A stretch of 64,000 nucleotides of DNA from positions 1,728,001 through 1,792,000 of the forward strand of contig OY969100.1 in assembly GCA_963697895.1 (NCBI GenBank). The letters are read 5' to 3'. Numbering within the stretch: position 1 is the first letter of the stretch; every line of letters starts with the position of its first letter. The notes below the pieces were generated by a model. It ran no database searches. It had not been told where the DNA came from and saw only the letters and a list, made by a program, of their open reading frames with translations. Position numbers and translations under genes: made by a program. Below, one piece after another: positions 40,937-60,173 of this stretch. The stretch comes from an uncultured Methanomicrobiales archaeon (GTDB lineage Archaea; Halobacteriota; Methanomicrobia; Methanomicrobiales; Methanospirillaceae).

Positions 40937-40940
40937 ATGC

Positions 40941-41219: not shown

Positions 41220-41223
41220 ACTG

Positions 41224-41961: not shown

Positions 41962-41973
41962 TCGGGTCCCCTG

Positions 41974-42435
41974 TTACTCCTTTGCGGTATCTATTTTAGG
42001 GATCTCCGGATGAGGTTCGCACTTGGGATCGTCACCATGGCGATGGCTGGTCTCCTCCCATGGTTCGAGACCATGGTTCACCCGGTAATCATTGATCGCC
42101 TTATGGATCCCTTCTTCAGCCAAGACTGAGCAATGCATTTTTATCGGGGGAAGACCTTCCAACGCTTCTGCGACCGCTTTGTTGCTCACAGTCCATGCTT
42201 CTTCAAGGGTCTTTCCCTTGATCAGCTCGGTGGCCATGCTGCTTGATGCGATCGCTGCCCCGCAACCGAACGTCTTGAATTTCGCATCAACAATACGATT
42301 GTTCTCGATCTTAAGGAAGATCTTCATAATATCCCCGCATATAGGATTGCCAACCTCGCCAACCCCGTCTGGGTTTTCTATCTCCCCCACATTTCGCGGA
42401 TTGGCGAAATGGTCCATCACCTTTTCGCTATACAT
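41974..42435 (-). CDS. iscU: Fe-S scaffold IscU/NifU
   Basis: YSEKVMDHF.NPRNVG, GNPICGD, TFGCGAAIA, LPPIKMHCS. Confidence 0.95.
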   Translation of the reverse strand: MYSEKVMDHFANPRNVGEIENPDGVGEVGNPICGDIMKIFLKIENNRIVDAKFKTFGCGAAIASSSMATELIKGKTLEEAWTVSNKAVAEALEGLPPIKMHCSVLAEEGIHKAINDYRVNHGLEPWEETSHRHGDDPKCEPHPEIPKIDTAKE

Positions 42436-43720: not shown

Positions 43721-43734
43721 TTCACAATTGTGAA
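43721..43734. promoter_or_regulatory. Palindromic operator TTCACAATTGTGAA (site 1), between divergent iscS and the APS-reductase-like::sufS gene
   Basis: Perfect 14-bp palindrome (16 bp with flanks), intergenic. Confidence 0.85.
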
Positions 43735-43936
43735 TGCGTATTCAAATGTTGTGAGTGAGTGCATTTAATTGTTCTGTTTGAAGTTCCCAAAAATAATTCA
43801 GAGAAGACAATAACCTGGATTTTCATAACAGCTCCCGGAATTCTTACCTCAAGTCCGAGCTTGACGGTAATACCATGGGGTAGGTGCTCCCTCCTGGACA
43901 CTGATATTATCAAGCTGCCATGTGCACCTTATAGTG

Positions 43937-46564
43937 ATGCGGGATCCCCCGGTGAAAAAGACGCTCTATTGGTGCGACCACTGCGATGTCCCCCTGATCG
44001 GTAAGCATTGCGGATGCGGAAATACGGGAAGGGCGATCTCCCTGCTACAGCCCTATGATGTCCGTCCCGCCCTATCCCATGACACGGAGTTGATCTATTC
44101 GCTTATCAACGAGCGGTTTGGAGATTTACGCCTTCCACAAGTCATTCTTTTGAACAAAACAGGAGGAATTGACCGGAATGACCTGGTGATAACCCATGGA
44201 GAACGATTGGGGTGGCTCTCATTCGATCCGGTAAGCCGGAAGTTCCGGTTTGACCTTGCGCCAGAGGGACTCCCGTTCATCCTTTCGGAAATGAAAAGAG
44301 GAATAATCGATCTCGAGGCCGCGATTCCTTCTTCAGAAGGGAAGCCCTCAGGGAGGATTGGAGGCAAGCGGTTCAGGGTTACAACCCAGGAGCAGGATGG
44401 AACTGTTATCGTGCGGTATCGTAAACAGTTTGGTACTGGAGTCCTGAAGAATGGATATTTGAGGGTAAAGGAGCTGGGAACGGTACCGGAACGGGAATCC
44501 CCCGACCCGGGCTGGGATGTTGTGGTGGCCAGGAATCAGTACCACTTGAAAAACCTGGAGAGAAACGCGATACGGGCTATCCGCCAGCATATGCATGATC
44601 GCCCGAGGGTGAATGTATCATTTTCCGGGGGAAAGGACAGTACCGCGGTCCTTGCACTCGCTCGCAAGGCCGGTGTCCACGAAGCTTTCTTCATCGATAC
44701 CGGGATCGAATTCCCAGAGACCTTGGCATTTATTGAAAAACAGGGGGTAAAGATCGTCAGGAGAGGTGGGGATTTCTGGAGTGCCGTTCAGAAGGCCGGA
44801 CCACCGGCAAAAGATCGCAGATGGTGCTGCAAACTCCTGAAATTGAATCCACTGAAACTACATCTGGCTGAAACGGGCCCCTGTGTCACCATCCAGGGAA
44901 ACCGGTGGTATGAGTCGTGGAACAGGGCAGACCTAGACATCACCAGCCAGAACCCGGCCAATCCACTCCAGCTGAATATCTCGCCAATCCGAAATTGGCG
45001 GGCACTTGAAGTGTACCTCTACCTCTGGTGGCAGAGGATCCCCTACAATCCCCTATACGACCAGGGGCTTGAGCGGATCGGTTGTTACCTCTGCCCCGCC
45101 ATGCTCGAGAGCGAATCTGAACAACTCGAGAAGATACACCCTGAATTTGCGTCGCGATGGAATGATTTTCTCAGAGGTTGGGAAGATTCCCGGGGGCTTC
45201 CCCGTGAGTATCACAAATGGGGCCTTTGGCGTTGGAAGGAACTCCCTCCCAAGATGAAGGGACTCTGCGAAACCCATGGGATCGTGCTTCAGGAAAACCC
45301 TGTTGCTATCCGCCGGACAACTCCCTCCCCTTATGCGGTCTCCGGGAATGTCGCAGTGCCGAAAAAGGAAGATGATAGTATGATCTATGAAGATGTCAGG
45401 AAGGATTTCTCGCTGGTCGCCGACATTATCTACCTGGACAGCGCCGCGACCAGCCTCTCACCGGAACCGGTGCTGGAGGCAGTCCTTGAATTCGAAAGGA
45501 ACTATCGGGCGAACGTCGGTCGGGGGGTGCACCGATTGGCGCAGATAGCCACCCAGCGGTACTGGCACGCCCATGAGAAAGTTGCCCGTTTCATCGGCGG
45601 GGAGAATGGCACCACGGTGTTTACCAAGAATACCACGGAAGCCATCAACATGGTCGCCCGAGGCCTGGGGTTGCGGAAGGGGGACAGGGTTGTCACCACC
45701 ATCCTCGAGCACCATTCAAACCTCGTCCCCTGGATGCATCTCAGGCAAGAAGGAGTAGACCTCGAGATCGTGGGGATCAACAGAGACTATAGTTTGAATC
45801 TATCAGCACTCGAGGCTGCGGTCACCGATTCAACAAGGCTGGTCACTCTATCCCATGTGTCCAATGCCCTTGGGGTGATCTGTCCCGTCGAAGAGGTGGC
45901 CCGGATCTGCCGGGACCAGGGGGCACTCCTCCTCATTGATGGATCCCAGTCCGTCCCACACCTACCCCTAGATATACATCGTATCGGGGCTGATTTTCTC
46001 TGCTTCTCGGGGCACAAGATGCTCGGACCGACCGGAACAGGCGTGCTCTGGATGAAAGAGCCGGTAATTGCGCCAAGCGACCTGGGAGGAGGGATGATCG
46101 ATACCGTATCAGAGGGGGGATACACCCTCGCCGAAGGATACCAGCGGTATGAAGCCGGCACTCCGAACATCAGTGGTGGAATTGGCCTTGGTGCTGCTGT
46201 CGATTACCTGAAAAGGGTAGGTATGGACAAGATAAGGAGCTCTGAAGAACGTCTGACAACACGGCTTATCGAAGGGCTCCGTTCCATCGACGGGGTAACA
46301 GTCTATGCGCATGACGATCCTGCACGGCGAATCGGAGTCGTTTCATTCACCGTTTCAGGATTCCATCCCCACGAGGTGGCACAGGCACTCGATGAACAGG
46401 CCGATATCATGGTCCGGTCTGGGCATCACTGCTGCATGCCCCTCATGCAGCGACTAGGCCTGCCGGATGGCACAATCAGGGCAAGCCTTTACCTCTACTC
46501 TGCGAATCACGAGGTCGATACTCTCCTCGCGACGGGGAAGGACATTGCGAGAAGTCGTTTATAA
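43937..46564 (+). CDS. Fusion: Zn-ribbon + PAPS/APS-reductase-family domain + SufS-type cysteine desulfurase
   Basis: WCDHC..HCGC; SFSGGKDS, RWCCK, RIGCYLCP; then YLDSAAT, FSGHKMLGPTG, EAGTP, RSGHHC; no stop between domains. Confidence 0.88.
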   Translation: MRDPPVKKTLYWCDHCDVPLIGKHCGCGNTGRAISLLQPYDVRPALSHDTELIYSLINERFGDLRLPQVILLNKTGGIDRNDLVITHGERLGWLSFDPVSRKFRFDLAPEGLPFILSEMKRGIIDLEAAIPSSEGKPSGRIGGKRFRVTTQEQDGTVIVRYRKQFGTGVLKNGYLRVKELGTVPERESPDPGWDVVVARNQYHLKNLERNAIRAIRQHMHDRPRVNVSFSGGKDSTAVLALARKAGVHEAFFIDTGIEFPETLAFIEKQGVKIVRRGGDFWSAVQKAGPPAKDRRWCCKLLKLNPLKLHLAETGPCVTIQGNRWYESWNRADLDITSQNPANPLQLNISPIRNWRALEVYLYLWWQRIPYNPLYDQGLERIGCYLCPAMLESESEQLEKIHPEFASRWNDFLRGWEDSRGLPREYHKWGLWRWKELPPKMKGLCETHGIVLQENPVAIRRTTPSPYAVSGNVAVPKKEDDSMIYEDVRKDFSLVADIIYLDSAATSLSPEPVLEAVLEFERNYRANVGRGVHRLAQIATQRYWHAHEKVARFIGGENGTTVFTKNTTEAINMVARGLGLRKGDRVVTTILEHHSNLVPWMHLRQEGVDLEIVGINRDYSLNLSALEAAVTDSTRLVTLSHVSNALGVICPVEEVARICRDQGALLLIDGSQSVPHLPLDIHRIGADFLCFSGHKMLGPTGTGVLWMKEPVIAPSDLGGGMIDTVSEGGYTLAEGYQRYEAGTPNISGGIGLGAAVDYLKRVGMDKIRSSEERLTTRLIEGLRSIDGVTVYAHDDPARRIGVVSFTVSGFHPHEVAQALDEQADIMVRSGHHCCMPLMQRLGLPDGTIRASLYLYSANHEVDTLLATGKDIARSRL

Positions 46565-46629
46565 AACCCTGGCGTGAACCTTACAGGACCGCGATTTTCC
46601 GATCTAATATCCTGATAACTAGATCCTGT

Positions 46630-47613
46630 TCACACATCCCGGAAAGGCGTGAGATCGCACCCGGTACAGGGGAGGCACATCGTCTTTGCTGCACGGGGGT
46701 CAAGATTAAACTCAGCAAGAAGAGCCTTTTGCATCCGTGCCAGCCGGAGCAGGCGATCGGGCGAGGGTCTATTGACTTTCACCTCGCCAGCCCTGAGCGG
46801 GGAAGCGGAGATTGGTCGAAGGATAGGGATCACTCCCCGTTCGGCCAAAAGCCTCACGCCTTCCCTGACGCAGGCATCATCTTCCCCAAGCCCGATGATG
46901 AAATTGGAAAAGACTGCATTCTTCCCGAAAATCTCCACGGCATGCTCCAGGGAGGCAATGATGAACTCAAGGGAGAGGCCTGGGCAGACCCGTGCAAAGA
47001 TATCCCGGTCTGTGGTCTCAACATTTTACTTGATCTCGTCAGCCCCGGCAGCAGCAAGGATTTCTGAGGAAGTGGTTGTCGGGTATACCGAGACCCCGAT
47101 GGGGAGATCGAATTGTTCCCGGAGCACTCTCACAACCTCTGCCATTCTTAAAACCTCCTTCCCGGGCGTATCGGCAACCCCGCTTGTCAATGAAATTGCT
47201 TTAAGGGTCCCCCCGGCAGCAGCCTCTTCGACCTTTCTTAAGACGGTTGCTCTTCCCTTGATCTTCCCCTGCAGTCTTGGCACCGGGCAGAACTTGCAAT
47301 CATAGATGCACCGCTCGCTGATAGTAATGTACGCCTGATCGGGGCAGTGACAGAGTGATGGTTCAAGCGTTCCATGGGTGATCTCAGTACCGTTCAGGAC
47401 CGCTACTACCCGGTTTCCATCGGGCATAATGTTAAGTGAAGATGCCGGATTGATGGAGAGCCGGACACGGTGATCCCCGGACCGGAGAAAGAAGGAGGCC
47501 CCTCCCGCGCCGGGACCTGCTGTAGCAGTCGTCTTCAGGGACCCTGTGATAAGCGCCTCATCGATCCGTGCACTCCCGATGCTTAGCAGTAGGGCTTTTT
47601 CCTCAGGGGTCAT
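46630..47613 (-). pseudogene. Biotin-synthase-related radical SAM protein interrupted by an in-frame TAA at 47026-47028
   Basis: CIYDCKFC core and C-terminal CLPCTGC; both halves are in the same frame and read EIK*NVET. Confidence 0.75.
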
Positions 47614-47762
47614 GGTATGATATTCCTCTGGTTACAAAGATCCTCTGATCGAGGGTGATCGGTCTCCGGTATTGGAATGGAGAGTAGGCCCACGACGAGA
47701 GATGACTGTCTGTTCCTGATTTCGGCTGTTCAGGATGGGTATCCGGATGCTCGTCTGATGCA

Positions 47763-47804
47763 TTCACAATTGTGAATTACAATACAATGATTAACAATTG
47801 TGAA
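47763..47804. promoter_or_regulatory. Operator pair: TTCACAATTGTGAA (47763-47776) and TTAACAATTGTGAA (47791-47804)
   Basis: 28-bp spacing; the second site abuts TATATA (47805-47810); between divergent radical SAM and nadA. Confidence 0.85.
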
Positions 47805-47907
47805 TATATAACTCTGATGATCAAGTCCGGCCGCCAGCCATGAAAAACGTCCCTGGTTATGGCTGGACCAGTATAAAGGGAAGACCAGAGCAGACCTGAG
47901 GAGAAGA

Positions 47908-48819
47908 ATGACTGATCGCAACACGCTCCGGAGGGAGATCCTTTCCCTCAAAGAGGAATGGAACGTTATCATCCTTGCACATAACTACCAGAATGCCGAG
48001 GTTCAGGATATCGCCGATCTGGTCGGGGATTCGCTCGAACTTGCACGGGCTGCAGGGTCAATGGAAGGTGCGGTTATCGTGTTCTGCGGTGTTGACTTCA
48101 TGGCAGAGACGGCTTCGCTCCTTTCACCGGACAAGACGGTTCTTCTGCCAGCAATTGATGCCTGCTGCCCCATGGCAGAGATGGTGACCTCTGGCGAACT
48201 TGCCGTCTTGAAGGACAGGTATGCGGATGCCGCTGTGGTTTCTTACGTGAATACTACGGCCGAAGTGAAAGCGGTGAGTGACATTTGCTGCACCTCAGCC
48301 AATGCGGTTAAAGTGGTAGAATCTCTCCCTGAATCACGGGTTATCTTTGTTCCCGATCGGAACCTTGCCAGTTATGTTGCCCGACATACATCCAAAATAA
48401 TCCTTCCCTGGGATGGCTACTGTATTGTTCATGATCGCATCACTGTTGAGGATGTCCTCAGGGAGAAAGCCCAGCATCCTGATGCTGAATTGCTTGTCCA
48501 TCCCGAATGCCGTCCCGAAGTGGTTGACTGTGCTGACCACGTATTCTCCACTTCGGGAATCATCAGGCACACCTGCGAAAGCCAAAAAGAGGAGTTCATA
48601 ATCGGAACTGAAGTCGGGATCCTCCACCGGATGAAGAAACTCTGCCCTGAAAAACGAATTTTCCCACTCTCTCCAAAAGCAATATGTGCGAATATGAAGA
48701 AGATATCCCTCGAAAAGGTGCTTACAGCCATGGAAAGGATGGAACCACGGGTTACGGTTCCACCTGACATTGCAGCACCAGCCCGTCGGGCAATCGAACG
48801 GATGCTTGCGATCTCCTGA
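47908..48819 (+). CDS. nadA: Quinolinate synthase
   Basis: ILAHNYQ, VGDSL, CGVDFMAE, CPMA, YVNT, CTSANA, CIVH, HPEC, CANMK. Confidence 0.96.
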   Translation: MTDRNTLRREILSLKEEWNVIILAHNYQNAEVQDIADLVGDSLELARAAGSMEGAVIVFCGVDFMAETASLLSPDKTVLLPAIDACCPMAEMVTSGELAVLKDRYADAAVVSYVNTTAEVKAVSDICCTSANAVKVVESLPESRVIFVPDRNLASYVARHTSKIILPWDGYCIVHDRITVEDVLREKAQHPDAELLVHPECRPEVVDCADHVFSTSGIIRHTCESQKEEFIIGTEVGILHRMKKLCPEKRIFPLSPKAICANMKKISLEKVLTAMERMEPRVTVPPDIAAPARRAIERMLAIS

Positions 48820-48971
48820 GCCTAACCTTGGAACGGATATAGAGTCCTCTGACCTGCGGTCCCCCATGGCTGGGAAGAAGAATGATTCTGAAGGACCGTT
48901 AGCCGGTCGGAGGAGACTGAGACGATGAACGGTGTACGCTATAAGAATACCCGTTCATCCCTCTCAACCTC

Positions 48972-50009
48972 TCAATCGCTGCCGGTAACACTCTCGAAGA
49001 ATACAGGCCAGAAGGGGTCTTGCTCTGGCATGGCAATCTTTTCTCTTTGGCCATTCCTTCTCGTAATCTGTCTGTATCCGGGATCACCGGTGACCTTCCC
49101 GATAACTGATGCGGGGATGCCGGCACTTCTTAACGCCTCGATGATGCCGTCAGTAGATTCAGGTCCCGCGGTGATCAATAGTGATCCTTCTGCAATCGCC
49201 GCAACAGGATCTATCCCGAAATGATCGCAGACCATCTTTACTTCTTCGGGATAAATGAACCGGGCTTCATCAACTTCAATTCCCACTCCGCTAGCCTCGG
49301 CGATCTCGAACAGGCCGCCGATTACCCCGCCCTCGGTGGCATCGTGCATCGCCGTGACTCCCCCGGCAGCCATCGCGATAAGCGCATCATCAACCACGGT
49401 CATCTGATGGACAAGCTCTATGGCTTTGACTACGAGGGAGCCCGGATACTGATCACGGAGGTCATCTTCCCTGAGGACCGATAAGATACCGGCTGTCTCG
49501 ATGGCGGGTCCCTTGGTGAGAATCACTGTATCCCCGGGCCGTGCACCGGCCGGAGTGACATACTCACCTCGGCGTGAGATCGCAAATACCGTGATCCCCC
49601 CGATGGTCGGCGCTGCAAAGCCCGGGTAATGACCGGTGTGGCCCCCGACAATAGCAATCCCGAGATCACGTGCGGCACGGTCGATCGATTCCACTACGGT
49701 GATAAGATCCTCCCTGGAGAACTCTGGGGGCATCAGGAGGGAATAGGTCATATACTGTGGTTTCACTCCCATGACCGCGATATCGCTTGCGCCGATATGC
49801 ACGGTGTACCAACCGAACATCTCCAGGGGCTGGCCCGGAATTGCAAAGATGGGGTCTTCGGCAACGATCAAAACCTTTCCATCCCCGATATCAATGACCC
49901 CCGCATCAATGCCTGGCATCGGGGGAACGATGATATGTTCATCCTTCTTCCCGAGTTTCGGTAGAATGACCGATGAGAATGTGCTCCCGTCGATCTTCCC
50001 GATCTTCAT
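48972..50009 (-). CDS. AIR synthase/PurM-superfamily protein (HypE/ThiL-like)
   Basis: GIDAGVI, ASDIAVMG, VGGHT, GARPGD, AMHDATEGG. Confidence 0.8.
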   Translation of the reverse strand: MKIGKIDGSTFSSVILPKLGKKDEHIIVPPMPGIDAGVIDIGDGKVLIVAEDPIFAIPGQPLEMFGWYTVHIGASDIAVMGVKPQYMTYSLLMPPEFSREDLITVVESIDRAARDLGIAIVGGHTGHYPGFAAPTIGGITVFAISRRGEYVTPAGARPGDTVILTKGPAIETAGILSVLREDDLRDQYPGSLVVKAIELVHQMTVVDDALIAMAAGGVTAMHDATEGGVIGGLFEIAEASGVGIEVDEARFIYPEEVKMVCDHFGIDPVAAIAEGSLLITAGPESTDGIIEALRSAGIPASVIGKVTGDPGYRQITRRNGQREKIAMPEQDPFWPVFFESVTGSD

Positions 50010-50614
50010 TCAGACCGCCTCCGTTGATAGGCTCGTGCAATCCCTATCATCTCATCAACCACGGAGACAGGGTCTCTCCCCACAAGTACTGTAACCGGTT
50101 CCTTTCCTATGGCACCCGTCTCGTAGAAGAGATTAGGCACCCGGCCACCTGCAGCGCGGATCGCCTCTCCCACTTTCCATGGCATGGACGCCCCCTCTTC
50201 CTCCTTCATGTCATCTGGTTCATTTCTCCGGTCGATCACGCTGAAGATCCACCCTTTCTCCAGAGAATAATCCTTCAGCCAGGCAGCGAGTGCGGGGTCA
50301 TTTGCAAAATTGATCCCTGCCCTGATTGATGGATCCCTCTTGCGTAGTTCAAGCAAGAGCCGCGCCATGTGGCTCGATGCACCGAATCTTGGCATTCCCG
50401 CCGCATGCGGCATTCCGTTCACAACCGTGATCCTCCCGTCTATCGCAAGAACATCATCAGGACTCCGGGCACGTTCCTTCGCATACACGAGATTGGTTCT
50501 CACTTCAGGGATCAACGATGTAAATTCCCTGCAGGATTCAAGCATGTAGAGCGCAATGCGCATTTTTTCAAACATCGCAACCGCTTCTTCAGTATCGTCC
50601 TCTCCCTCCATCAT
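50006..50614 (-). CDS. Stand-alone ThiN-like (thiamine-phosphate synthase family) domain
   Basis: LIPEVRTN, GRIT, FGASSHMARLLL, DRRNEP, SMPW, GKEP. Confidence 0.85.
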   Translation of the reverse strand: MMEGEDDTEEAVAMFEKMRIALYMLESCREFTSLIPEVRTNLVYAKERARSPDDVLAIDGRITVVNGMPHAAGMPRFGASSHMARLLLELRKRDPSIRAGINFANDPALAAWLKDYSLEKGWIFSVIDRRNEPDDMKEEEGASMPWKVGEAIRAAGGRVPNLFYETGAIGKEPVTVLVGRDPVSVVDEMIGIARAYQRRRSE

Positions 50615-50744
50615 GGAAACTCCCTTCGAATTCTGTCTTATGTAATAGATCGGTCTGGTTCCGGGTTATTATGCAGGGGGATCTCAGAGCACGGGATGGA
50701 CGATTGAATCCATTCCTGCCTGGTCGCCCATGTATCCAGAACAT

Positions 50745-50758
50745 TTCACAATTGTGAA
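50745..50758. promoter_or_regulatory. Palindromic operator TTCACAATTGTGAA upstream of the thiN-like unit
   Basis: Perfect copy directly downstream of a minus-strand TATA-like AGTATATC (50761-50768). Confidence 0.85.
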
Positions 50759-50873
50759 TTGATATACTTTGCCACCGTACACTTCTCATACACTCGACAG
50801 AGCCCTGATTAGAAATACGTTCCTTGCTTTGGGGATCTTGCACTGCAGTACGAGGCTTGCAGGGTAGTGTTCA

Positions 50874-51650
50874 CTACGGAGTCGACTGCTCCTTCTTTTT
50901 GGAGACTTCGATCCGTTCCGGATGCGTGTACACGTTCATCTTATCGCCACGGGCAAATCCGACGATGCTGAGCCCGTTTTTATCGGCGATCTCTATTGCG
51001 AGAGTAGTTGTCGCACCCCGTGAGATAATGATGGGAATATTGGCAATCAGGCACTTCCGCGCCATCTCCGAGGAGATCCGCCCGGACGCGATGATGAATG
51101 TGTTCGATAGGTCAATTCCGTTTCTCAATGCATACCCAATGACCCTGTCCAAGGCATTGTGTCTCCCGATATCCTCAGATCCGCTGATGATTTTTTGGGC
51201 GCCAACAAGCGCAACGACGTGGATTCCTCCTGTTATTTTATAAAGTTCGGAGTTGAGGGTGTTTTTCATCATGTCCGTAATGAATGCAGTGCTGATAGAG
51301 AAAACAGAATGAATTTTGGGGAGTTTTTCTGGATCGATATACGAGGCACTTCCCCCGCATCCCGAAAGGATCGTTTTTTTCGGGCCGAGGACTTTGAACA
51401 GGTTTGTGGTGATCACACTGATCCGGTTCTTATCCAATTTTATTGATTCAATCTCGTCAGCCTTCCTGATTACCTGTTCGGTGAAGAGGAAGCCGGTGAC
51501 GAAGTCTTCAATACCATCAGGGCTCATCATTGCTGTCATCATGTGCCGCCCGTTCACAAAGAGAGCGTATGGTATCTCTTCGACGACTTCATGGAGGATC
51601 CGTTCAGATATTCCCCCAATGATCCGGATGCAGGGTACCTTACGATACAC
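50874..51650 (-). CDS. fdhD: Formate dehydrogenase accessory sulfurtransferase FdhD
   Basis: VVEEIP, GFLFTE, SGCG, TGGIH, EDIGRHNALD, SGRISSEM. Confidence 0.93.
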   Translation of the reverse strand: MYRKVPCIRIIGGISERILHEVVEEIPYALFVNGRHMMTAMMSPDGIEDFVTGFLFTEQVIRKADEIESIKLDKNRISVITTNLFKVLGPKKTILSGCGGSASYIDPEKLPKIHSVFSISTAFITDMMKNTLNSELYKITGGIHVVALVGAQKIISGSEDIGRHNALDRVIGYALRNGIDLSNTFIIASGRISSEMARKCLIANIPIIISRGATTTLAIEIADKNGLSIVGFARGDKMNVYTHPERIEVSKKKEQSTP

Positions 51651-51713
51651 CTGTCACACCCTCCTCTGTCCGTTGGCCAAGATTAGAGATGATTCCGGGT
51701 ATCGCATGTTCCA

Positions 51714-52523
51714 TCACTTGATTAACACCTCATCCATGCTCCCGCTCCGGTAACCTTCAAGATCCAGTGTAATATACGAAATCCCTAACTTTCTGAATTC
51801 TTTCGCTATCTCGTCTCTCATACCAGCGATCCTGGGTATATCCCTATTTTTTGCTTCAATTCTCGCAATTCCGGAATGCATCCTCACCCGAACCTGGAGA
51901 AACCCTTTGGAGTGAAGATAGTCTTCCGCAACTTCAATCATCCGGAGGCACTTTTCAGTTATCTCTTCTCCGTAGGGAATTCGAGAGGAGAGGCAAGCGG
52001 CGGAAGGTTTGTTCCAGAAATCGTACCCGCATTCCCGGGCAATATTCCTGATATCTTCTTTGTTGATCCTCGCATCGATAAAGGGGTGCACAATCCCCTC
52101 TTCAGTACTGGCGATGATCCCCGGGCGGTGTTCATTGATGTCAGAGAGATTTATCCCATCGGCAACACAGTAAAGGCCAAGTTCGTGAGCCCTCCTTTTC
52201 AGGATTTGTGCATCTGTCTTTTTACAGTGGTAGCAGCGATCGGGAGCATTTCTTCTGATTGTATCATTTATGGCATTCTCCCGGATGATTTCAAACGAGA
52301 GGCCGAGACTATAACCGATACGCTCCGCTTCGATTACTGCCGATCTCGGGACAAGGGGGCTGTCAAGAAAGACACAGTGGGCTCTCTCATCCATCACCAC
52401 TTTTGCCACTGCTGCCAGAAGAGCACTGTCTACCCCGCCCGAATAGGCAATGAGCATGGATTTCCTTATGCCAATCTGTTGCTTCAGGGCTTCATACTTG
52501 CAGCCGTTTCCCTCTTTGTCCAT
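51714..52523 (-). CDS. larE: ATP-dependent sulfur transferase LarE
   Basis: AYSGGVDS PP-loop, RCYHCK, HRPG, KPSAACLSSRIPYG, QVRVR, DLEGYRSGSM. Confidence 0.93.
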   Translation of the reverse strand: MDKEGNGCKYEALKQQIGIRKSMLIAYSGGVDSALLAAVAKVVMDERAHCVFLDSPLVPRSAVIEAERIGYSLGLSFEIIRENAINDTIRRNAPDRCYHCKKTDAQILKRRAHELGLYCVADGINLSDINEHRPGIIASTEEGIVHPFIDARINKEDIRNIARECGYDFWNKPSAACLSSRIPYGEEITEKCLRMIEVAEDYLHSKGFLQVRVRMHSGIARIEAKNRDIPRIAGMRDEIAKEFRKLGISYITLDLEGYRSGSMDEVLIK

Positions 52524-52576
52524 GATGGAACGAGTATCTCCGATGGAAGGAATTCAGTGGGATGAGCCAAAAAAAA

Positions 52577-52906
52577 TCAGGAGTCGCACTCCGATGGTTC
52601 ATACCCGCACTGGTCCCCTTCCTCCCTTAGTTGCTTGCAGATATCACAGATCCGGTCAACGAGGTTTTCCACTTTTCCGTCCTTGAGGTCCTGTGCAAGG
52701 CGTTCAATCGATCGTTTTACTTCATCCTCAAACTCGATTCGGTACCCGCGTTTACCGGATATATACTGGGATACCGCAGAGGGGGCAATCTCGAGCATTT
52801 TTGAGGCCTCGATCTGGGATACTCCGCACCTTACCAGTTCGACGGCAATTGCCGCCCTGATTGCGGGCAAAACATCCCATACAATCTTTTGACACGGTGC
52901 CTGCAT
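52577..52906 (-). CDS. Small Cys-rich XRE-like HTH transcriptional regulator (ThiR-N/COG2522-like)
   Basis: PCQ....VLPAIRAAIA.EL...GVSQ.E..KML.IAPSAVSQYISGKRG; C87-x2-C90, C100, C107. Confidence 0.85.
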   Translation of the reverse strand: MQAPCQKIVWDVLPAIRAAIAVELVRCGVSQIEASKMLEIAPSAVSQYISGKRGYRIEFEDEVKRSIERLAQDLKDGKVENLVDRICDICKQLREEGDQCGYEPSECDS

Positions 52907-52947
52907 ACTCTCACTCTCTGAGTGTAATCATCCATAGATGTTTGGCT

Positions 52948-52961
52948 TTCACAATTGTGAA
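52948..52961. promoter_or_regulatory. Palindromic operator TTCACAATTGTGAA upstream of HTH-larE-fdhD
   Basis: Perfect copy ~40 bp before the HTH start codon. Confidence 0.85.
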
Positions 52962-53102
52962 TCAACTTAGGAACCCAAAATAGTTTGCACGCTCTTTTTT
53001 TTTCATTTTGGAACGATCACTCCCCTTTAAGAGATCCATTGGAGGATCATCTACCGCTTACGAAATCTATAAATAATCACAATAGTTATCAAATAAGGTA
53101 AG

Positions 53103-53116
53103 TTCACAATTGTGAA
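53103..53116. promoter_or_regulatory. Palindromic operator TTCACAATTGTGAA immediately 5' of tRNA-Cys
   Basis: Perfect copy 6 nt before the tRNA; TATAAATA at 53068-53075 is followed by a degenerate copy ATCACAATAGTTAT (53076-53089). Confidence 0.85.
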
Positions 53117-53122
53117 TTCAAT

Positions 53123-53194
53123 GCCCGGGTGGCAGAGTGGTGATGCGTCAGACTGCAGATCTGATCAATATGAGTTCAATTCTCATCCCGGGCT
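53123..53194 (+). tRNA. tRNA-Cys (GCA)
   Basis: Acceptor GCCCGGG/CCCGGGC + U73; anticodon arm TCAGA-CTGCAGA-TCTGA (G37); T arm ATGAG-TTCAATT-CTCAT. Confidence 0.9.
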
Positions 53195-53210
53195 TTCAGG
53201 TGACACAACA

Positions 53211-54575
53211 ATGGATAACAGGATAGATAACGTCTTTCGTGCCCTCTTTACCCTTGAGGACCTGCGGGAAATCCACCGCAAGGCACTCCCCACGGGTATG
53301 GATGCTAAAGAGGAGGACCAGTACCGGGAAACCCTGGCCCGCCTGAAAAGGATCATCTCTGATATCGAGCGGGGGAGACCCGCAAAGGAAATCACGAAAA
53401 TCGCCGGAACCATTGATATCCGTACCCGTGAGGAGAATTACATCAATATTCAGCCCATCCAGGCTGCAGGACGGCTCACACCGGAGGCACGGAAGGCGGT
53501 TATTGCATATGGAGACGGGTATTCGACCTGTGACGCCTGCCGAAAACCCTTCCGCCTCGACAAGATCTCAAGGCCGGGGATAGCCGAGTTCCATGCAGAC
53601 CTTGCAAAGTTCGTGAATATGGACCAGGCCCGGGTCGTGCCTGGGGCGAGGCGCGGGTTCCAGGCAGTCACGGGGACATTAGTGGAGAAAGGCGACAGCG
53701 TAATCGTATCCGCACTTGCTCACTATACCGAGTTCCTCGCAGTGGAAAATGCCGGAGGGATCGTTAAGGAAGTGCCCCTCAACGAGAAAAATATCGTAAC
53801 GGCAGATGCGATGGCACAAAAAATCGAGGATGTCAAACGGGAGACGGGAGAACTCCCGGTACTCGTCATGATCGACCACATCGATTACCAGTTCGCAAAT
53901 GAGCACGAGATCGCCGGAATCGGAAAAGTCGCGCACCAGTACGACATCCCGTTCCTCTATAATGGTGCCTACACTGTCGGGGTCATGCCGGTCGACGGTA
54001 AGAAAATAGGAGCTGACTTTGTCGTCGGCTCCGGACACAAGAGTATGGCATCGGTCGCACCGTCCGGGGTGCTTGCGATGACTGATGAATGGGCACCTTC
54101 CGCGCTCCGCACCACCGCGATGGTCGGTGACCTTACCAAGAGGAAGTTTGGCATCAAGGAGGTCGAGATGCTCGGATGCACGCTGATGGGCGGGACCCTC
54201 ATTTCCATGATGGCCTCGTTCCCGATCGTCAAAGCACGGACGCAGATTTGGGACAATGAGGTAAAAAGGTCCAACTACTTCATCGACCGTCTGTTGAAAA
54301 TTTCCGGCAGCACAGTGCTCTCTGAGTATCCACGCAAGCATACCCTCACGAAGGTGGACACAACAGGAAGCTTCGATACTGTGGCAAAAACTCACAAACG
54401 GCGCGGGTTCTACTTCAGCGACGAATTGTCATCCCGCGGGATCGCCGGAGAGTTTGCCGGGGCGACGAGGACCTGGAAGCTGAACACCTACGGGCTCAGT
54501 GATAAGAAAATCCGGTACCTTGCGGACGTTATCACCGAAATTGCGGAAAAATACGAATTACCCGTCTGTAAATGA
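53211..54575 (+). CDS. pscS: Sep-tRNA:Cys-tRNA synthase with N-terminal helical extension
   Basis: NIQPIQAAGRL, GDGYSTCDAC, GARRG, AHYT, GSGHKS, LGCT; ~65-aa extra N-terminal domain; start at ATG 53211. Confidence 0.92.
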   Translation: MDNRIDNVFRALFTLEDLREIHRKALPTGMDAKEEDQYRETLARLKRIISDIERGRPAKEITKIAGTIDIRTREENYINIQPIQAAGRLTPEARKAVIAYGDGYSTCDACRKPFRLDKISRPGIAEFHADLAKFVNMDQARVVPGARRGFQAVTGTLVEKGDSVIVSALAHYTEFLAVENAGGIVKEVPLNEKNIVTADAMAQKIEDVKRETGELPVLVMIDHIDYQFANEHEIAGIGKVAHQYDIPFLYNGAYTVGVMPVDGKKIGADFVVGSGHKSMASVAPSGVLAMTDEWAPSALRTTAMVGDLTKRKFGIKEVEMLGCTLMGGTLISMMASFPIVKARTQIWDNEVKRSNYFIDRLLKISGSTVLSEYPRKHTLTKVDTTGSFDTVAKTHKRRGFYFSDELSSRGIAGEFAGATRTWKLNTYGLSDKKIRYLADVITEIAEKYELPVCK

Positions 54576-54584
54576 GGACCAACA

Positions 54585-55883
54585 ATGTCAGACAAGAAAT
54601 TCCGTTTAGGAACGACCGCCCTCCATGCAGGGCAGGTACCCGACCCAACCACCGGGTCACGGACTGTACCGATCTACCAGACGACCTCGTACATGTTCAA
54701 GAACACGGAGCATGCTGCAAACCTATTCGGGTTAAAAGAGCTCGGGAATATCTACACCCGGCTTATGAACCCGACAACGGATGTCTTCGAAAAGCGCATT
54801 GCTGCAATTGAAGGAGGGACCGGCGCCATCGCAACAGCATCGGGAGCTGCGGCAATAACCTACGCGATCCTGAACATCACTCGTCCCGGTGACGAGATCG
54901 TCTCAGCAGACAACCTGTATGGCGGTACGTACGAGTTCTTCCACTATACCCTCCCGAAGTTCGGGCGGTACGTCATCTTCGTAAACTCCTCAAAACCGGA
55001 AGAATTCAGGAAAGCGATCACCGGGAAGACAAAGGCGATCTATGCTGAGACCGTCGGCAACCCGAAACTGGATGTCCCTGACTTTGAGAAGATTGCGCAG
55101 ATAGCCCATGATGCCGGCGTTCCCTTTATCGTTGACAACACGACCGGAGTCGGTCTTGTCCGCCCGATAGATCACGGTGCTGATGTCGTCGTCCATTCGG
55201 CGACCAAGTACATCGGCGGTCATGGGAACTCTCTCGGGGGAGTCGTCGTCGACTCTGGCAAATTCGCGTGGAATAATGGTAAGTTCCCCGAGTTCACCGA
55301 TCCGGACCCGAGTTATCACGGCCTGAAATACTGGGACACGTTCGGAAATTTTCCCGGCCTCGGGAACGTGGCATTTGTCTTCAAGATCCGGGTCTCACTC
55401 ATGAGGGATACCGGTGCCGTACTCAGCCCGTTCAATGCCTGGCTTTTCCTCCTCGGCCTTGAGACCCTGCACCTGCGGGTACCCCGCCACTCTGAGAATG
55501 CCCTTGCCGTCGCGGAATTCCTTAACAACCACCCGAAGGTGGCCTGGGTGAACTATCCGGGACTTCCCGATAACCCAAACCACGAGCTCACAAAAAAATA
55601 CCTTGTAGGCGGGTATGGCCCACTTGTCGGGGTTGGTATAAAGGGCGGTGAAAAGGCAAGCAGAAAGTTCATAGACAGCCTCAAGCTATTCAGTAACCTC
55701 GCTAATATCGGAGACTCGAAGAGCCTGGTCATCCACCCGGCGAGCACGACTCACCAGCAACTCACGGTCGAGGAACAGGCAAAGACCGGTGTCACGCCAG
55801 ATGCAGTTCGGCTCGCGATCGGTACCGAAGATATCGAAGATATTCTCTCAGACCTGGATCAGGCATTGGAAGGGGCTTGTTGA
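54585..55883 (+). CDS. metY: O-acetylhomoserine aminocarboxypropyltransferase/sulfhydrylase
   Basis: [51 protein letters not shown]. Confidence 0.93.
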
Positions 55884-57359
55884 TGATCAAAGGTTCGGTG
55901 GGTATTGTGGAGACGAAGTATTACCAACATCAGTACATACTCGAACTAGAAAGCGGGGAAACCCTGCCTTTTCTCACAATCGCCTACGAGACCTATGGAA
56001 AACTGAACCGGGACAAGAGTAACGGGATTCTGCTCTGTCATGCCCTTTCAGGGGATGCCCATGTCGCCGGATTTCATGAAGGCGATGAAAAGGCCGGGTG
56101 GTGGGATAGTGTCGTCGGCCCCGGGAAAGCAATTGATACAGATCGTTACTTTGTCGTATGTTCCAATGTGATCGGCGGGTGCAAGGGCTCCACTGGTCCT
56201 TCGTCCCCTCATCCTGAAACCGGGAAGCCCTATGGGTTATCCTTTCCGGTCATCACCATCGGTGACATGGTGACAGTCCAGAAGATGCTCCTCGATCACC
56301 TGGGGATAAAGCGGCTTTTCGCCGTTGCGGGAGGGTCGATGGGAGGAATGCAGGCACTGCAATGGACGGTCTCCTACCCCGACATGGTAAAAAAAGCGAT
56401 CATCATCGCAGCAACCGGGTATTCAACACCCCAGCAGATCGCGTTTAATGAAGTGGGGAGGAAGGCGATCATCTCCGATCCCGACTGGAACAACGGGGAT
56501 TATTACGGAAGATCGCTGCCCATCCATGGGCTTTCGCTGGCACGGATGGTCGGTCATATCACCTACCTGTCCGACGAGTCGATGCACGCAAAGTTCGGAA
56601 GGGCGCTGCAGGGCAAGGAGCAGATCGGGTTTGACCTCTCCACCGACTTTCAGGTGGAGAGTTACCTCCATCACCAGGGCGATACATTTACCCGGCGGTT
56701 TGATGCGAACTCATACCTGTACATCACCAAGGCGATCGACTACTTTGATCTGACACAAGACGATTCACTCACAAACGGCCTCTCGGGGGCAAAGGCAAAC
56801 TTCCTCGTCATCTCGGTCTCCTCCGACTGGCTCTACCCTCCGTACCAGTCGCAGGAGATCGTATCAGCGCTGGCGGCAAACGAGCGGGATGTTCATTACT
56901 GTGAGATACGCTCCAATTATGGCCACGATGCCTTTCTGCTGGAATCCGGGCAGCTCGAACTACCTTATCGGGAAATTCCTCTCCTCAACCGTGGTGGAGG
57001 ATATAATGACCCGGAATATCCAGATTATCGAGGAAGGAACGACGATCGCAGTCGCGGCGCGTTGCATGATAACGGTGGGGGTAAACCACCTCCCTGTTCT
57101 TACCAGTAATGGGAAACTCGTAGGGATTGTTACATCATGGGACATTGCAAAGGCAGTGGCCTCCAATTACCTGTGGCTGGATGAGATCATGTCAAAAAAT
57201 GTAATCACGAGCACGGTGGGTGAGTCAATCGAGTCGGCGGCAAAGAAGATGGAAGAACATCAGATCTCGGCGCTTCCGGTAATTGATGAACAGGAACATG
57301 TTATCGGGCTTGTCACGAGCGAAGCAATCAGTATGCTCATCGGTGGGTGGAATACGTGA
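55883..57359 (+). CDS. metX: Homoserine O-acetyltransferase fused to a C-terminal CBS pair, frameshifted (+1 at ~56957)
   Basis: [31 protein letters not shown]; removing G56957 joins ESGQL|NYLIGKFL to the CBS pair. Confidence 0.88.
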
Positions 57360-57871
57360 GAATTCTTTCCATTCATGCCGATTCAATGTGGTACCGTGCA
57401 ACACAGAAGACGCAAATGGCCGAGTACATCCAGCAGAGGGAAGATCTGATGAAGGAATGTGTCGTGCTCTTCTGCTGTGTGGAAAAGCTGGACGAGCGGA
57501 GCCCGGATTACGTGATCGCAAGCGCGATAAGGAACATCCTCGAACGGCTGAACAAATTGAAGGTGCACCAGGTGATGATCTATCCGTACGCACATCTCAC
57601 GAGCACACTCGGCTCTCCGGAGTGTGCGCTCCGGATCCTCATAGGTATTGAAGAAGGGCTTCGTGCATCGTCGGTGGAGGTCAAACGGGCGCCGTTTGGC
57701 TGGTATAAGGAGTTCGAGATCCGGGGAAAGGGACACCCGCTTGCGGATCTCTCCATGACAATCTGCCCGTATGAAGGGGTCGAATGTGATTTCCAGTGCC
57801 CGTACTGCAAAAATCCGATCAAGGAAGGCGATCTCCAGAGAACCCGACCTGTGGCGCACATCATGAATTAG
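57356..57871 (+). CDS. Free-standing archaeal ThrRS editing domain (DTD-like) with Cys-rich tail
   Basis: [31 protein letters not shown]...KGHPLADLS; tail CPYEGVECDFQCPYC. Confidence 0.85.
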   Translation: MRILSIHADSMWYRATQKTQMAEYIQQREDLMKECVVLFCCVEKLDERSPDYVIASAIRNILERLNKLKVHQVMIYPYAHLTSTLGSPECALRILIGIEEGLRASSVEVKRAPFGWYKEFEIRGKGHPLADLSMTICPYEGVECDFQCPYCKNPIKEGDLQRTRPVAHIMN

Positions 57872-57897
57872 ACGGTACCCGGGGATGGAATATTCGA

Positions 57898-59010
57898 ATG
57901 ACAAGGCAATGGCTCGTCCGATATTCGGAACTGTTCCTGAAATCAGACCCGGTTCGTCGTCGGTGGGAACAGGTCCTCATTGCGAATATCCTGAAGGTAT
58001 CGCCGGAGATCCAGGTAAGAAGCGAGCGTGGACGCATTTGGCTTAGCGGAGAGGTGATTCCGGAGTGGCTGGAAAAAATCTTCGGCGTTATCTCGTTCTC
58101 CGAGGTCGAGCAGGTACCACTCGGACGGCTCGATTCGGTCCTTCCGGATTACTGCCGTTGTAAAGGGATGGAAAAGGTCAAAACGTTTGCCATCCGAATG
58201 AAGCGGGTTGGGAATCATACCTTCACTTCGCATGAAAAAGCGATCGAATACGGCAACCTGATTCGAAGAACGTTTCCACACCTGAAAGTGAACCTTGCGA
58301 CTCCGGATAAGGAGATATTCATTGAGATCCGGGGATACGAATGTTACCTGTATGATTCGATGATCAAGGGGCCGGGGGGTCTTCCCCTGGGCGTTGAAGG
58401 AACACTGGTTGCGCTCCTGTCCGGTGGAATCGACTCGCCGGTTGCCACATGGATGATGATGAAGCGGGGGTGCAGGATCATTCCGTTGTTCATCGCCCTC
58501 GACAGTGTCCTCGATGAGACTAACCGCGAGCGTGCAGAGAGCGTCGTCGAAGCACTACGGGCGTATCAGCCGGATATCGAGCTCTGCGTGATCACCGATT
58601 CGTATCTTTCCCGTGCAAAACAGGAACTCACACGGGTCGGTCTGGAAAAATATACCTGTATCTTCTGTAAACGAAGGATGTACCGGGTCGCAGAAAAGTT
58701 CGCGCGAAATGCGGGGGCGAAAGGGTTCGTTACGGGTGAATCCCTCGGACAGGTCGCGTCCCAGACACTGGATAATCTCATGGTCCTGAACGAGGCAGCG
58801 ACCATGCCGGTATACCGCCCCCTCATCGGGTTTGACAAGGAAGAAACAATCCGCATCGCACGGGAGATTGGCACCTTCGCCGCTTCCATCACACACGCAA
58901 CCGGATGTACAGCGGTTCCGAAGGGACCCTCAACGAAGGCAGATCTCGACACAATCAGACAGATTGAAAAGGAACTACTTTCCTTCAGTGATACTATTCC
59001 CTTATCCTGA
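57898..59010 (+). CDS. thiI: tRNA 4-thiouridine synthase
   Basis: VRYSELFLKS, THUMP domain, LSGGIDSPVA, CIFC, TGESLGQVASQT, RPLIG, C-terminal GC. Confidence 0.93.
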   Translation: MTRQWLVRYSELFLKSDPVRRRWEQVLIANILKVSPEIQVRSERGRIWLSGEVIPEWLEKIFGVISFSEVEQVPLGRLDSVLPDYCRCKGMEKVKTFAIRMKRVGNHTFTSHEKAIEYGNLIRRTFPHLKVNLATPDKEIFIEIRGYECYLYDSMIKGPGGLPLGVEGTLVALLSGGIDSPVATWMMMKRGCRIIPLFIALDSVLDETNRERAESVVEALRAYQPDIELCVITDSYLSRAKQELTRVGLEKYTCIFCKRRMYRVAEKFARNAGAKGFVTGESLGQVASQTLDNLMVLNEAATMPVYRPLIGFDKEETIRIAREIGTFAASITHATGCTAVPKGPSTKADLDTIRQIEKELLSFSDTIPLS

Positions 59011-59069
59011 TATTAGGGTTCGGGGTACATGTCGGGTCATTCGGTTACTGCCCGAAAAGATATTCCTGA

Positions 59070-59354
59070 TCATGGCTTTTTTCTCGCCTTCGCCCGGATC
59101 ATATCGGCTTCTTCCGCGGATTCGACACGGAGGATATAGGTCCCGTAACAGGGTTTTGTATAGGGGAGGATGACCACCGGACCTTCCAGGCCGATTGAGA
59201 TGGGGGGCACGCCGATCAAACATTTCTCAAAGATTTTAAAGCCGGGATCCACGTAGTATCTCTCCTCACAACGATCCTCGATATATTTCCGCGATTCCTT
59301 AAATGAGACTCCGAAAGCGAGAACTTCGTATCCTAGGTCTTCGACGCAGCCCAT
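59070..59354 (-). CDS. DUF1894-family protein
   Basis: MGCVEDLGYEVL, IGVPPI.IG, PYTKPCYGT. Confidence 0.75.
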   Translation of the reverse strand: MGCVEDLGYEVLAFGVSFKESRKYIEDRCEERYYVDPGFKIFEKCLIGVPPISIGLEGPVVILPYTKPCYGTYILRVESAEEADMIRAKARKKP

Positions 59355-59806
59355 CCAAACACCTCGTCCATTTTCCTCCGCAGCTGCCCGGGATTATGCA
59401 CAGCTTTCTCCACAATCTTCTCACAGGGTACCTCGAGTTGTTCCCCCAAAGCCTCGGCCTCCCTTCCGAAGATCACTGCAATAAGCCGCCCTCCGGTCAG
59501 AAACCGAACGGTAGTTGCATACGAAATCCCGGCATCACTGTGGGCGAAGACAATGCAGAGCTTTGGTTGACGTTTTTTTGTCGAAAGTTCCTCAATGCAC
59601 CGGTCCAGTTCCACGAATTTTTTAATATACATCTTTGCCGGATCAGATACCCGCAACAACGTTAATACCGCCGCATTACCAGCAACCACCAGGGGCTGCC
59701 CGCTCTGGTTGAACCGATACCCACAGTACAGTGCAAGCGCCTGTTGAACCGGTACCTCAGGGCAACCAAGAATTAACAATGGTTCCGTATTTTCAGTATC
59801 ATTCAT
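59333..59806 (-). CDS. DUF1890-family protein
   Basis: LILGCPEVPVQ, GNAA...LLRVSDP, FAHSDAGISY, AVHNP. Confidence 0.78.
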   Translation of the reverse strand: MNDTENTEPLLILGCPEVPVQQALALYCGYRFNQSGQPLVVAGNAAVLTLLRVSDPAKMYIKKFVELDRCIEELSTKKRQPKLCIVFAHSDAGISYATTVRFLTGGRLIAVIFGREAEALGEQLEVPCEKIVEKAVHNPGQLRRKMDEVFGWAASKT

Positions 59807-59894
59807 AGAGATCCCACAGGGACAAAGCCGGATTTGCATTGGAGCGTCGCTGATTTGTAGTCAGCCAACGAGTTGTTATTCAGCTTCTGTTCGG

Positions 59895-59921
59895 TTCACA
59901 ATTGTGATTCACAATTGTGAA
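59895..59921. promoter_or_regulatory. Tandem operators TTCACAATTGTGAT (59895-59908) and TTCACAATTGTGAA (59908-59921)
   Basis: Head-to-tail copies sharing one base, upstream of DUF1890. Confidence 0.85.
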
Positions 59922-60088
59922 ATAATTCTCGGTCTATATTCTATAAGAACATATTCTTTGAGGAAAATCGATAAGGAATTTCATATAGGTAATGCGGCCC
60001 AGATTAGAAATATTTTATAAATACATGGATGATAGGATACACGTTATTTTCAGCGATTGATATAACCATTGAGTGAATTGATCTAAAG

Positions 60089-60102
60089 ATAACAATTGTG
60101 AA
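60089..60102. promoter_or_regulatory. Near-consensus operator ATAACAATTGTGAA upstream of sufS-cysM
   Basis: 12/14 match, directly before a TTTTTAT TATA-like box (60105-60111). Confidence 0.7.
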
Positions 60103-60173
60103 CATTTTTATCCCATGCGATTCTCATGAGTATTGCACATTCCGTGGATACCTTTTCTCCAGGGTGATTGTTG

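Follow-up and report, generated by a model that had tools for sequence, protein, structure and literature searches.

A 14-base palindrome at the promoters of a methanogen sulfur gene cluster: a probable archaeal operator and its candidate helix-turn-helix regulator

The sulfur gene cluster and its palindromic sites

The sequence considered here is a 64,000-nucleotide stretch from an uncultured Methanomicrobiales archaeon of the Methanospirillaceae (assembly GCA_963697895.1, contig OY969100.1, positions 1,728,001 to 1,792,000 of the forward strand), hereafter the window, and its subject is a 14-base palindrome, TTCACAATTGTGAA, which marks the promoters of a sulfur gene cluster and is probably a regulatory operator. 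The window is part of a single contig of 2,091,725 bp (53.8% GC), and the whole genome was scanned; coordinates are those of the window unless given as genome positions. Perfect copies of the palindrome lie at 43721, 47763, 50745, 52948, 53103 and 59908, copies with one mismatch at 47791 and 59895, and a copy with two mismatches at 60089, all nine falling exactly where, and in the mismatch class in which, a first-pass annotation made from the sequence alone had placed them. The window scan also agrees with that annotation that all nine are intergenic and that the first 43 kb hold no copy, and its claim that nine transcription units each carry a site is borne out, with at least one copy at the 5' end of every unit.

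At up to two mismatches, nine copies were observed in the window against 0.16 expected (mean of dinucleotide shuffles), and nine or more were reached in none of 100 dinucleotide shuffles of the window. In a scan of the 2.09-Mb genome, which the first-pass annotation had proposed as a check, the motif was not scattered: the 16-kb cluster holds all six perfect copies, two of the three copies with one mismatch and one of the six with two mismatches, while the six copies elsewhere compare with about 6.7 expected at up to two mismatches (our own arithmetic, for uniform composition). In this genome the palindrome is over-represented and confined to a functionally coherent set of sulfur genes. A one-mismatch site at genome position 1898783 was rejected as a chance match because it is located inside a glycosyltransferase open reading frame (ORF), in a low-GC island. 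A symmetric variant, TTCATAATTATGAA, is found at genome 1428509-1428522 (L064:3009-3022) just 5' of a larB-like gene (AIR carboxylase family), with a nicotinamide-nucleotide adenylyltransferase-like gene also downstream; the same variant stands upstream of thiN in the relative G015 (L018:678). The genomic TTCATAATTATGAA site could be a weak member of the regulon or a chance match.

The gene names proposed in the first-pass annotation were upheld by Pfam and NCBIfam, and its tRNA-Cys by ARAGORN. The first perfect copy (43721..43734) lies between two divergent units. On the minus strand is the iscS unit (40505..43621), comprising iscS (42428-43621), iscU (41974-42435), moeB/ThiF (41224-41961), moaD/ThiS-like (40941-41219) and moaE (40505-40987). 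On this side a TATA-like 'cattaaatg' lies about 28-36 nt upstream of the site, which is kept 5' of iscS orthologues. On the plus strand (43922..46564) is a gene for an 880-residue fusion of a PAPS-reductase-like protein and a SufS-type cysteine desulfurase, again assigned from Pfam and NCBIfam. From a Cys-rich N-terminus the fusion runs through a PAPS-reductase-like PP-loop domain to a complete SufS-type desulfurase; the NCBIfam models that match the N-terminal part are all of the 'hypothetical protein' kind (PRK13795).

Two copies, one perfect (47763-47776) and one with a single mismatch (47791-47804), separate a radical-SAM gene (46630..47613, minus strand) from nadA, which encodes quinolinate synthase (47908..48819, plus strand). 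The second copy abuts a TATATAA at 47805, an arrangement in which the site adjoins a TATA-like box that recurs 5' of nadA orthologues at two further loci (L017 and L023). The radical-SAM gene contains an in-frame TAA at 47026-47028 in place of a Tyr codon that is conserved in intact orthologues of 335 (G025) and 331 (G035) residues, so that it is a pseudogene unless the TAA is a base error. The perfect copy at 50745..50758 is upstream of a minus-strand pair, thiN (50006-50614) and a gene for an AIR-synthase-related protein (48972-50009), with a TATA-like 'agtatatcaa' immediately upstream of it on that strand.

Next comes the minus-strand operon HTH-larE-fdhD, whose first gene (52577..52906) encodes a 109-residue helix-turn-helix (HTH) protein and is followed by larE (51714-52523; TIGR00268, 270 bits against a cut-off of 150) and fdhD (50874-51650). 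The perfect copy at 52948..52961 is 41 bp 5' of the HTH start codon; it is predicted to cover the transcription start of the HTH gene and to serve as an autoregulatory site. The plus-strand promoter of tRNA-Cys and pscS (53068..53116) is arranged as TATAAATA (53068-53075), followed directly by a degenerate copy, ATCACAATAGTTAT (53076-53089, four mismatches), and then by the perfect copy at 53103-53116, which ends 6 nt before the tRNA. At orthologous tRNA-Cys/pscS promoters the first copy is closer to consensus (L017, L021). This promoter precedes tRNA-Cys (53123-53194), SepCysS/pscS (53211-54575), metY (54585-55883), metX-CBS (55877-57359), a ThrRS editing domain (57347-57871) and thiI (57796-59010). 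The genome has two tRNA-Cys(GCA) genes, this one and a second at genome 1370585-1370656; since the first stands directly behind the operator, one of the two copies may be sulfur-regulated. The metX-CBS gene is broken at about 56934-56956, the homoserine O-acetyltransferase and the C-terminal CBS pair lying in different frames. In relatives it is one ORF (515 residues in G015, 521 in a Methanosarcinaceae genome), and the break is either a frameshift or an assembly indel.

At the far end of the cluster, two overlapping copies, one with a single mismatch (59895-59908) and one perfect (59908-59921), are upstream of the minus-strand genes for DUF1890 (59333-59839) and DUF1894 (59070-59354). The two-mismatch copy, ATAACAATTGTGAA (60089..60102), is upstream of the plus-strand pair sufS2 (60168-61340) and a cysM/cysK-type pyridoxal-phosphate enzyme (61346-62275), and is followed by a TATA-like 'catttttatc'; the identical variant occurs at the same position in the relative G015 (L018). 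TATA-like boxes abutting sites, as described earlier for this cluster, are thereby seen at 47805, at thiN (the 50745 site) and at sufS2 (the 60089 site). Outside the cluster, a 1285-residue ORF at 35351-39208 resembles a DNA polymerase large subunit with an intein-like insert, an impression from the translation only.

These positions bear on whether the palindrome acts as DNA or as RNA. It could form a short hairpin in the 5' leader that affects processing, stability or attenuation, and the 24-nt contexts do fold into hairpins of 5-7 bp at -3.8 to -5.7 kcal/mol. However, these hairpins are weak, with z-scores of -1.2 to -2.6 and with 4 to 29 of 200 shuffles as stable. Transcripts would not include those copies that lie upstream of TATA boxes, divergent promoters are served by single copies, and common variants (for example ...GTGAG and ATCAC...) break the end pairs asymmetrically. 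An Rfam search of 40000-63000 found only two tRNAs, and the palindromes match no Rfam family. We regard action at the RNA level as very improbable.

Conservation of the palindrome in relatives

The motif was followed in 40 relatives within the same order, drawn from six families (41 genomes with the window's own). Fourteen of the 40 relatives carry perfect copies, 35 in total, while the reversed, non-complemented 14-mer used as a control has no perfect match in the 41 genomes. When the window proteins were mapped onto the 35 fetched sites, with Pfam for unmatched neighbours, 34 sites were found to have the HTH gene or a sulfur-type gene within 450 bp downstream, and one was at a contig end. 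The genes behind the 34 sites are those for the HTH protein, iscS, a SufS-type desulfurase, SepCysS, nadA, cysM, DUF1890 and thiN, together with radical-SAM, moeB/ThiF, larE, a stand-alone ThiI PP-loop domain and a TauE/SafE permease. Gene order is widely rearranged among these 14 relatives and the motif remains with the same orthologues, so the palindrome is conserved at orthologous promoters regardless of gene order. The footprinting suggested in the first-pass annotation thus finds the motif kept 5' of iscS, pscS, nadA, thiN, radical-SAM, DUF1890, cysM and larE orthologues in several families, and into the Methanosarcinaceae.

In the complete relative G003, eight of the 14 sites at up to one mismatch map to regulon-type genes, including two pscS-metY operons and moeB-moaD-moaE. 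The other six have no tie to a sulfur gene and are near genes for NifH-like, ferredoxin, MFS, PP2C and YbjQ proteins and unknown ORFs. In the same genome a two-mismatch copy precedes a nadA-ycaO-tfuA operon (L172, G003:C1:1242600-1249000). YcaO and TfuA are presumed to form the thioglycine found in methyl-coenzyme M reductase, and with a copy in this position these enzymes would therefore fall under the same control. No iron-uptake gene was seen adjoining any of the sites examined.

The operator and the HTH orthologue are also found in the Methanosarcinaceae, where the palindrome, often as TTCACAATTGTGAG, lies 5' of the HTH gene, iscS-iscU-nadA, SepCysS-metY-metX and cysK-cysE. In the low-GC Methanosarcinaceae genomes the 12-mer core is no commoner than its reversed control; among the four genomes of this family that have matches, those within about 9 kb of the HTH gene number four of five, three of three, one of one and two of two. 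In more distant families the palindrome changes to TTAACAATTGTTAA or ATAACAATTGTTAT, and a palindrome with a AACAATTGTT core is present upstream of 11 of 20 distant orthologues.

This pattern also speaks to the most sceptical explanation, that the copies are chance matches, a dispersed repeat, mobile-element ends or a restriction-site artefact. In its favour is only the palindromic form, the core CAATTG being a palindrome of restriction type. Against it, none of the 100 shuffles reached the observed count, orthologous promoters in different orders retain the site, and the flanks are unconserved beyond about 1-2 nt, as seen in a position weight matrix which was built from consensus-like sites and is therefore not an unbiased motif, serving only to show this non-conservation. 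Such an origin is scarcely credible.

The candidate regulator and its link to the palindrome

In the first-pass annotation the HTH gene was merely a member of the regulon; it is here added as the likely regulator, the 109-residue protein encoded at 52577-52906 (minus strand) being, on comparative grounds, the likely cognate factor of TTCACAATTGTGAA. Some of its homologues are pre-annotated with Pfam HTH_3 (PF01381), and no NCBIfam model matches it. A phmmer sequence search of the PDB gave no match at E<=1, and its structural model has no Foldseek match against the PDB at E<=0.001; a wide VIA-align comparison reached a best Z of 5.3, with unrelated helical proteins, none of this being a sign of a new fold. 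AlphaFold models the protein as five helices, with a mean predicted local distance difference test (pLDDT) score of 77.7 and disordered ends (residues 1-9 and 97-109, pLDDT <50). A homodimer prediction from two copies of the HTH alignment, run without controls, scored 0.01 against a mark of 0.42 and counts neither for nor against a dimer.

Four cysteines (Cys5, Cys87, Cys90 and Cys100) are invariant in 28 orthologues, and a set of 21 phylum-wide sequences retains Cys5 and the CxxC pair, in many cases with additional cysteines near the C-terminus. At E <= 1e-10 the profile of the family matches 687 clusters at 50% identity; of 301 genomes sampled from the phylum, 225 have a match at E <= 1e-5, the weaker matches probably being paralogues. 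Public records name its members only 'helix-turn-helix domain-containing protein' or 'transcriptional regulator', and matches in the ESM Atlas are generic HTH_3 clusters only, some of them from Chlorobiota and Methanobacteriota. The closest named relatives come from Methanoregulaceae and Methanomicrobiales metagenome bins, and orthologues 57-70% identical are present in Methanolobus, Methanococcoides and in larger Methanosarcinaceae genomes. The window's own genome also encodes a 102-residue paralogue (genome 1961699-1961956; L065:3678-3986, minus strand) which is 38% identical over 89 aligned residues and keeps an N-terminal Cys and the CDIC motif. It scores 29.8 bits with PF01381, above the cut-off, and similar paralogues exist in most relatives.

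Three lines of evidence connect this protein with the palindrome. The first is position. A copy with at most two mismatches adjoins the HTH gene in 29 of 30 loci of the best homologues (the window's own included), and in 24 of these 29 the best copy is 36-90 bp 5' of the start codon, 36-50 bp being the commonest range. The remaining five have their best copy at a greater distance and a poorer match nearer the gene. Alignment of these upstream regions on the palindrome brings out a conserved element resembling a TFB recognition element (BRE) and TATA box, 'aAAg.TaTTTa', whose end is about 14-15 nt 5' of the palindrome. In archaea, transcription usually starts some 23-26 nt downstream of the TATA centre, and at this spacing the start site of the HTH gene would therefore fall inside the palindrome, the predicted geometry of autorepression.

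The second line is co-occurrence. An orthologue (best E <= 1e-20) is present in 23 of the 40 relatives, and 19 of these 23 have sites at up to one mismatch, 95 in total. Of the 17 without an orthologue, seven have such sites, nine in total, which is near chance; the reversed control at the same threshold gave five matches across the 41 genomes. The motif co-occurs with a candidate factor that carries a predicted autoregulatory site. The third line is co-variation, examined in 58 distinct orthologues, 48 of them with a recognisable upstream site. It concerns residue 41, at the beginning of the predicted recognition helix: orthologues with Ala here have C/G at operator positions 3 and 12 in 31 of 35 cases, and those with Thr have A/T in 11 of 13.

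The same data can be set against the view that the palindrome is a genuine operator whose reader is some other factor encoded elsewhere, the HTH gene being only one of the regulated genes. Membership of the regulon alone would place a site 5' of the HTH-larE operon, two genomes without a detected orthologue carry perfect sites, and in G010 the sites are flanked by HTH genes of another type. However, sites are at chance level where no orthologue is detected (nine in 17 genomes against 95 in 23), their distance from the HTH start varies little between orders, operator positions 3 and 12 change in step with residue 41, and both exceptional genomes are incomplete or fragmented assemblies. A different reader is distinctly improbable. 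The genes in question in G010 (C115, locus L013) are two of MarR/HTH_24 type that flank operator copies at 3437 and 6031, and they could form a second regulatory layer.

Our preferred interpretation is that TTCACAATTGTGAA is the operator of a conserved archaeal sulfur regulon and is read by a dimer of the 109-residue HTH protein, acting as an autoregulated repressor with a cysteine sensor. This seems probable from the comparisons described above, and several observations weigh against it. The protein itself falls below the HTH_3 cut-off (21.3 bits against 23, E 2.8e-4). One HTH locus of the 30 (L049) has no site, four of the 23 orthologue-bearing relatives have no site at up to one mismatch, and nine of the 20 distant orthologues have no recognisable upstream palindrome. 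Conversely, perfect sites occur without a detected orthologue in G002 (73% complete) and G017 (400 contigs). The cut-off used to call orthologues was set after the E-values had been seen to be bimodal, and the counts for co-occurrence and co-variation overstate the support because related genomes are not independent. The sites at nadA and sufS2, on the upstream side of the TATA element, could mean activation, and structural zinc on the four cysteines is a serious rival to a cluster.

Proposed mechanism, known systems and significance

In the proposed mechanism the HTH protein would bind TTCACAATTGTGAA as a symmetric dimer at promoters of two designs. In one, the site lies between the TATA element and the predicted start site, over that start or just after it (HTH, iscS, tRNA-Cys/pscS and thiN); in the other, it is flush with the upstream edge of the TATA element, where TFB would contact the BRE (nadA and sufS2). 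Both placements would hinder the recruitment of TBP and TFB or of polymerase, and repression is therefore the most economical reading. The protein would then be an autoregulated repressor that shuts down cysteine desulfurases, the iron-sulfur (Fe-S) scaffold, tRNA-dependent cysteine synthesis and the synthesis of homocysteine and methionine, as well as sulfur insertion into thiamine, molybdopterin, the LarE product, 4-thiouridine (s4U) and NAD-precursor enzymes.

The alternative on this point is that the HTH protein binds the same palindrome as an activator, or as a dual regulator whose effect depends on position, activating nadA and sufS2 and repressing where the site covers the start. Position-dependent dual action is known for archaeal SurR and TrmBL1, a precedent that favours it, as does the site upstream of the TATA-like box at nadA, sufS2 and their orthologues. 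Most sites, however, are downstream of the TATA element, and those at nadA and sufS2 touch it with no spacer, so that they would occupy the BRE position, which favours occlusion of TFB. We consider activation, alone or as part of a dual action, unlikely.

For the signal, the four invariant cysteines (5, 87, 90 and 100) are the likely sensor, and our preferred guess is that an Fe-S cluster or a thiol/persulfide switch would report sulfide or Fe-S sufficiency and that the loaded form is the one that binds DNA. Given how many cysteine desulfurases and sulfur-insertion enzymes the regulon contains, along with the Fe-S scaffold, sensing of this kind would be physiologically sensible. Cys5 and Cys100 lie in the poorly modelled termini, which may fit a site that becomes ordered on binding a metal or cluster. 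The same features are compatible with structural zinc, in which case the signal would be a small molecule or a partner protein and not cluster or thiol chemistry: a CxxC...C arrangement with an N-terminal Cys is also typical of zinc sites, and the termini bearing Cys5 and Cys100 are modelled with low confidence (pLDDT <50) and give no geometry for the cysteine site. On the other side, the protein has only about 100-110 residues and no separate ligand-binding domain. Structural zinc is rather unlikely in our estimation, and an Fe-S or thiol switch remains the preferred guess. The specificity of the motif, its conservation, its placement at promoters and its linkage and co-variation with the HTH gene are shown by the sequences; dimerisation, repression, the nature of the signal and co-expression of the units are what we infer.

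Several known regulators resemble parts of this system. IscR, an Rrf2 protein of Proteobacteria, is an autoregulated repressor beside iscSU that conveys Fe-S or sulfur status to cluster-assembly genes via cysteine ligands; the present cluster similarly has a predicted autoregulated HTH gene with four invariant cysteines beside iscSU, and a predicted operator 5' of iscS. However, searches of Pfam (E<=0.001) and NCBIfam (E<=0.01) found no Rrf2 domain in the HTH protein, which has a weak HTH_3 match only, and the operator sequence differs. The predicted regulon is also much wider, taking in cysteine, methionine, thiamine, the molybdenum cofactor (Moco), LarE, ThiI and a tRNA-Cys gene, and the proposed control is archaeal promoter occlusion as against sigma-70 control. 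CymR, the Rrf2 protein of Bacillus and Staphylococcus, is a single repressor for cysteine synthesis, sulfur assimilation and related genes, and uses CysK with O-acetylserine in Bacillus. The regulon described here likewise includes cysM/cysK, metY, metX and, in the Methanosarcinaceae, cysE, but the fold family and operator differ and there is no sign of a CysK partner.

Among archaeal regulators, SurR of the Thermococcales carries a CxxC redox switch, has the palindrome GTTn3AAC as its site and responds to elemental sulfur; its targets are genes for hydrogenase and sulfur reduction and not those for sulfur assimilation. The present system shares with it an archaeal setting, a tie to sulfur, a CxxC motif and a palindromic site, whereas TTCACAATTGTGAA does not contain GTTn3AAC, the protein is a single small HTH domain with four cysteines, and its named relatives belong to Methanomicrobiales and Methanosarcinaceae. 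The NrpR operator is GGAA-N6-TTCC, from which TTCACAATTGTGAA differs, and the regulon has no nitrogen genes; a direct reading of the motif agrees with the earlier observation that it matches neither the NrpR nor the SurR operator. Compared with the Cro/C1 (XRE) proteins, the similarities are a small helical HTH protein, a symmetric operator, predicted autoregulation and homologues that carry PF01381. The window protein differs in scoring below the HTH_3 cut-off, in having no matching solved structure, and in its N-terminal Cys and C-terminal CxxC-x9-C, which are not XRE features.

Literature searches with the motif, its core and keywords turned up no description of the motif or regulator, in line with the first-pass annotation's description of the regulon as undescribed; subscription-only papers and supplements could hold one. 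The 14-mer was not found in a literature text search, and among the matches listed for the 10-mer core all are unrelated by title. Clusters of iscS2U2 with methionine and NAD genes have been reported in many Methanomicrobia, with no mention of a regulator in the accessible part of that paper (PMC7585200). Likewise, a survey of Fe/S metabolism in methanogens names no regulator in the portion available (PMC8351635), and the available part of a study with transcript and protein data for M. barkeri under sulfide, cysteine and pyrite does not report the predicted regulon genes (PMC10846266).

The comparisons indicate a new, widely conserved archaeal regulon, predicted to span at least two methanogen orders. 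A bolder reading, possible and on balance somewhat doubtful, is that a hitherto unrecognised Cys4-sensor family of HTH proteins of about 100 residues would be the master regulator of sulfur assimilation and trafficking in methanogens of at least two orders, an archaeal counterpart of IscR and CymR combined on a different fold. Such a family would sense Fe-S or sulfide sufficiency through a cluster or persulfide and would co-control Fe-S assembly, tRNA-dependent cysteine synthesis (with a dedicated tRNA-Cys gene), the making of methionine and thio-cofactors and, in certain species, thioamidation of methyl-coenzyme M reductase by YcaO-TfuA.

The demand of methanogens for iron and sulfur is unusually high, and the predicted regulon joins pathways so far studied apart, namely IscSU, SepCysS, homocysteine synthesis, ThiI, LarE, Moco sulfur transfer and NadA. 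Because they would lie within the regulon, sulfur-related roles are indicated for DUF1890 and DUF1894, the AIRS-like protein and the radical-SAM gene. The same operator and orthologue occur in the Methanosarcinaceae, a family that includes genetically tractable species, which makes the prediction directly testable, and the co-variation between residue 41 and the operator lends itself to a specificity swap. The regulation of sulfur and Fe-S metabolism in methanogens is described, in the available parts of two accounts, as largely unknown (PMC8351635, PMC7585200), and the candidate regulator-operator pair would offer a first concrete handle on how methanogens control sulfur.

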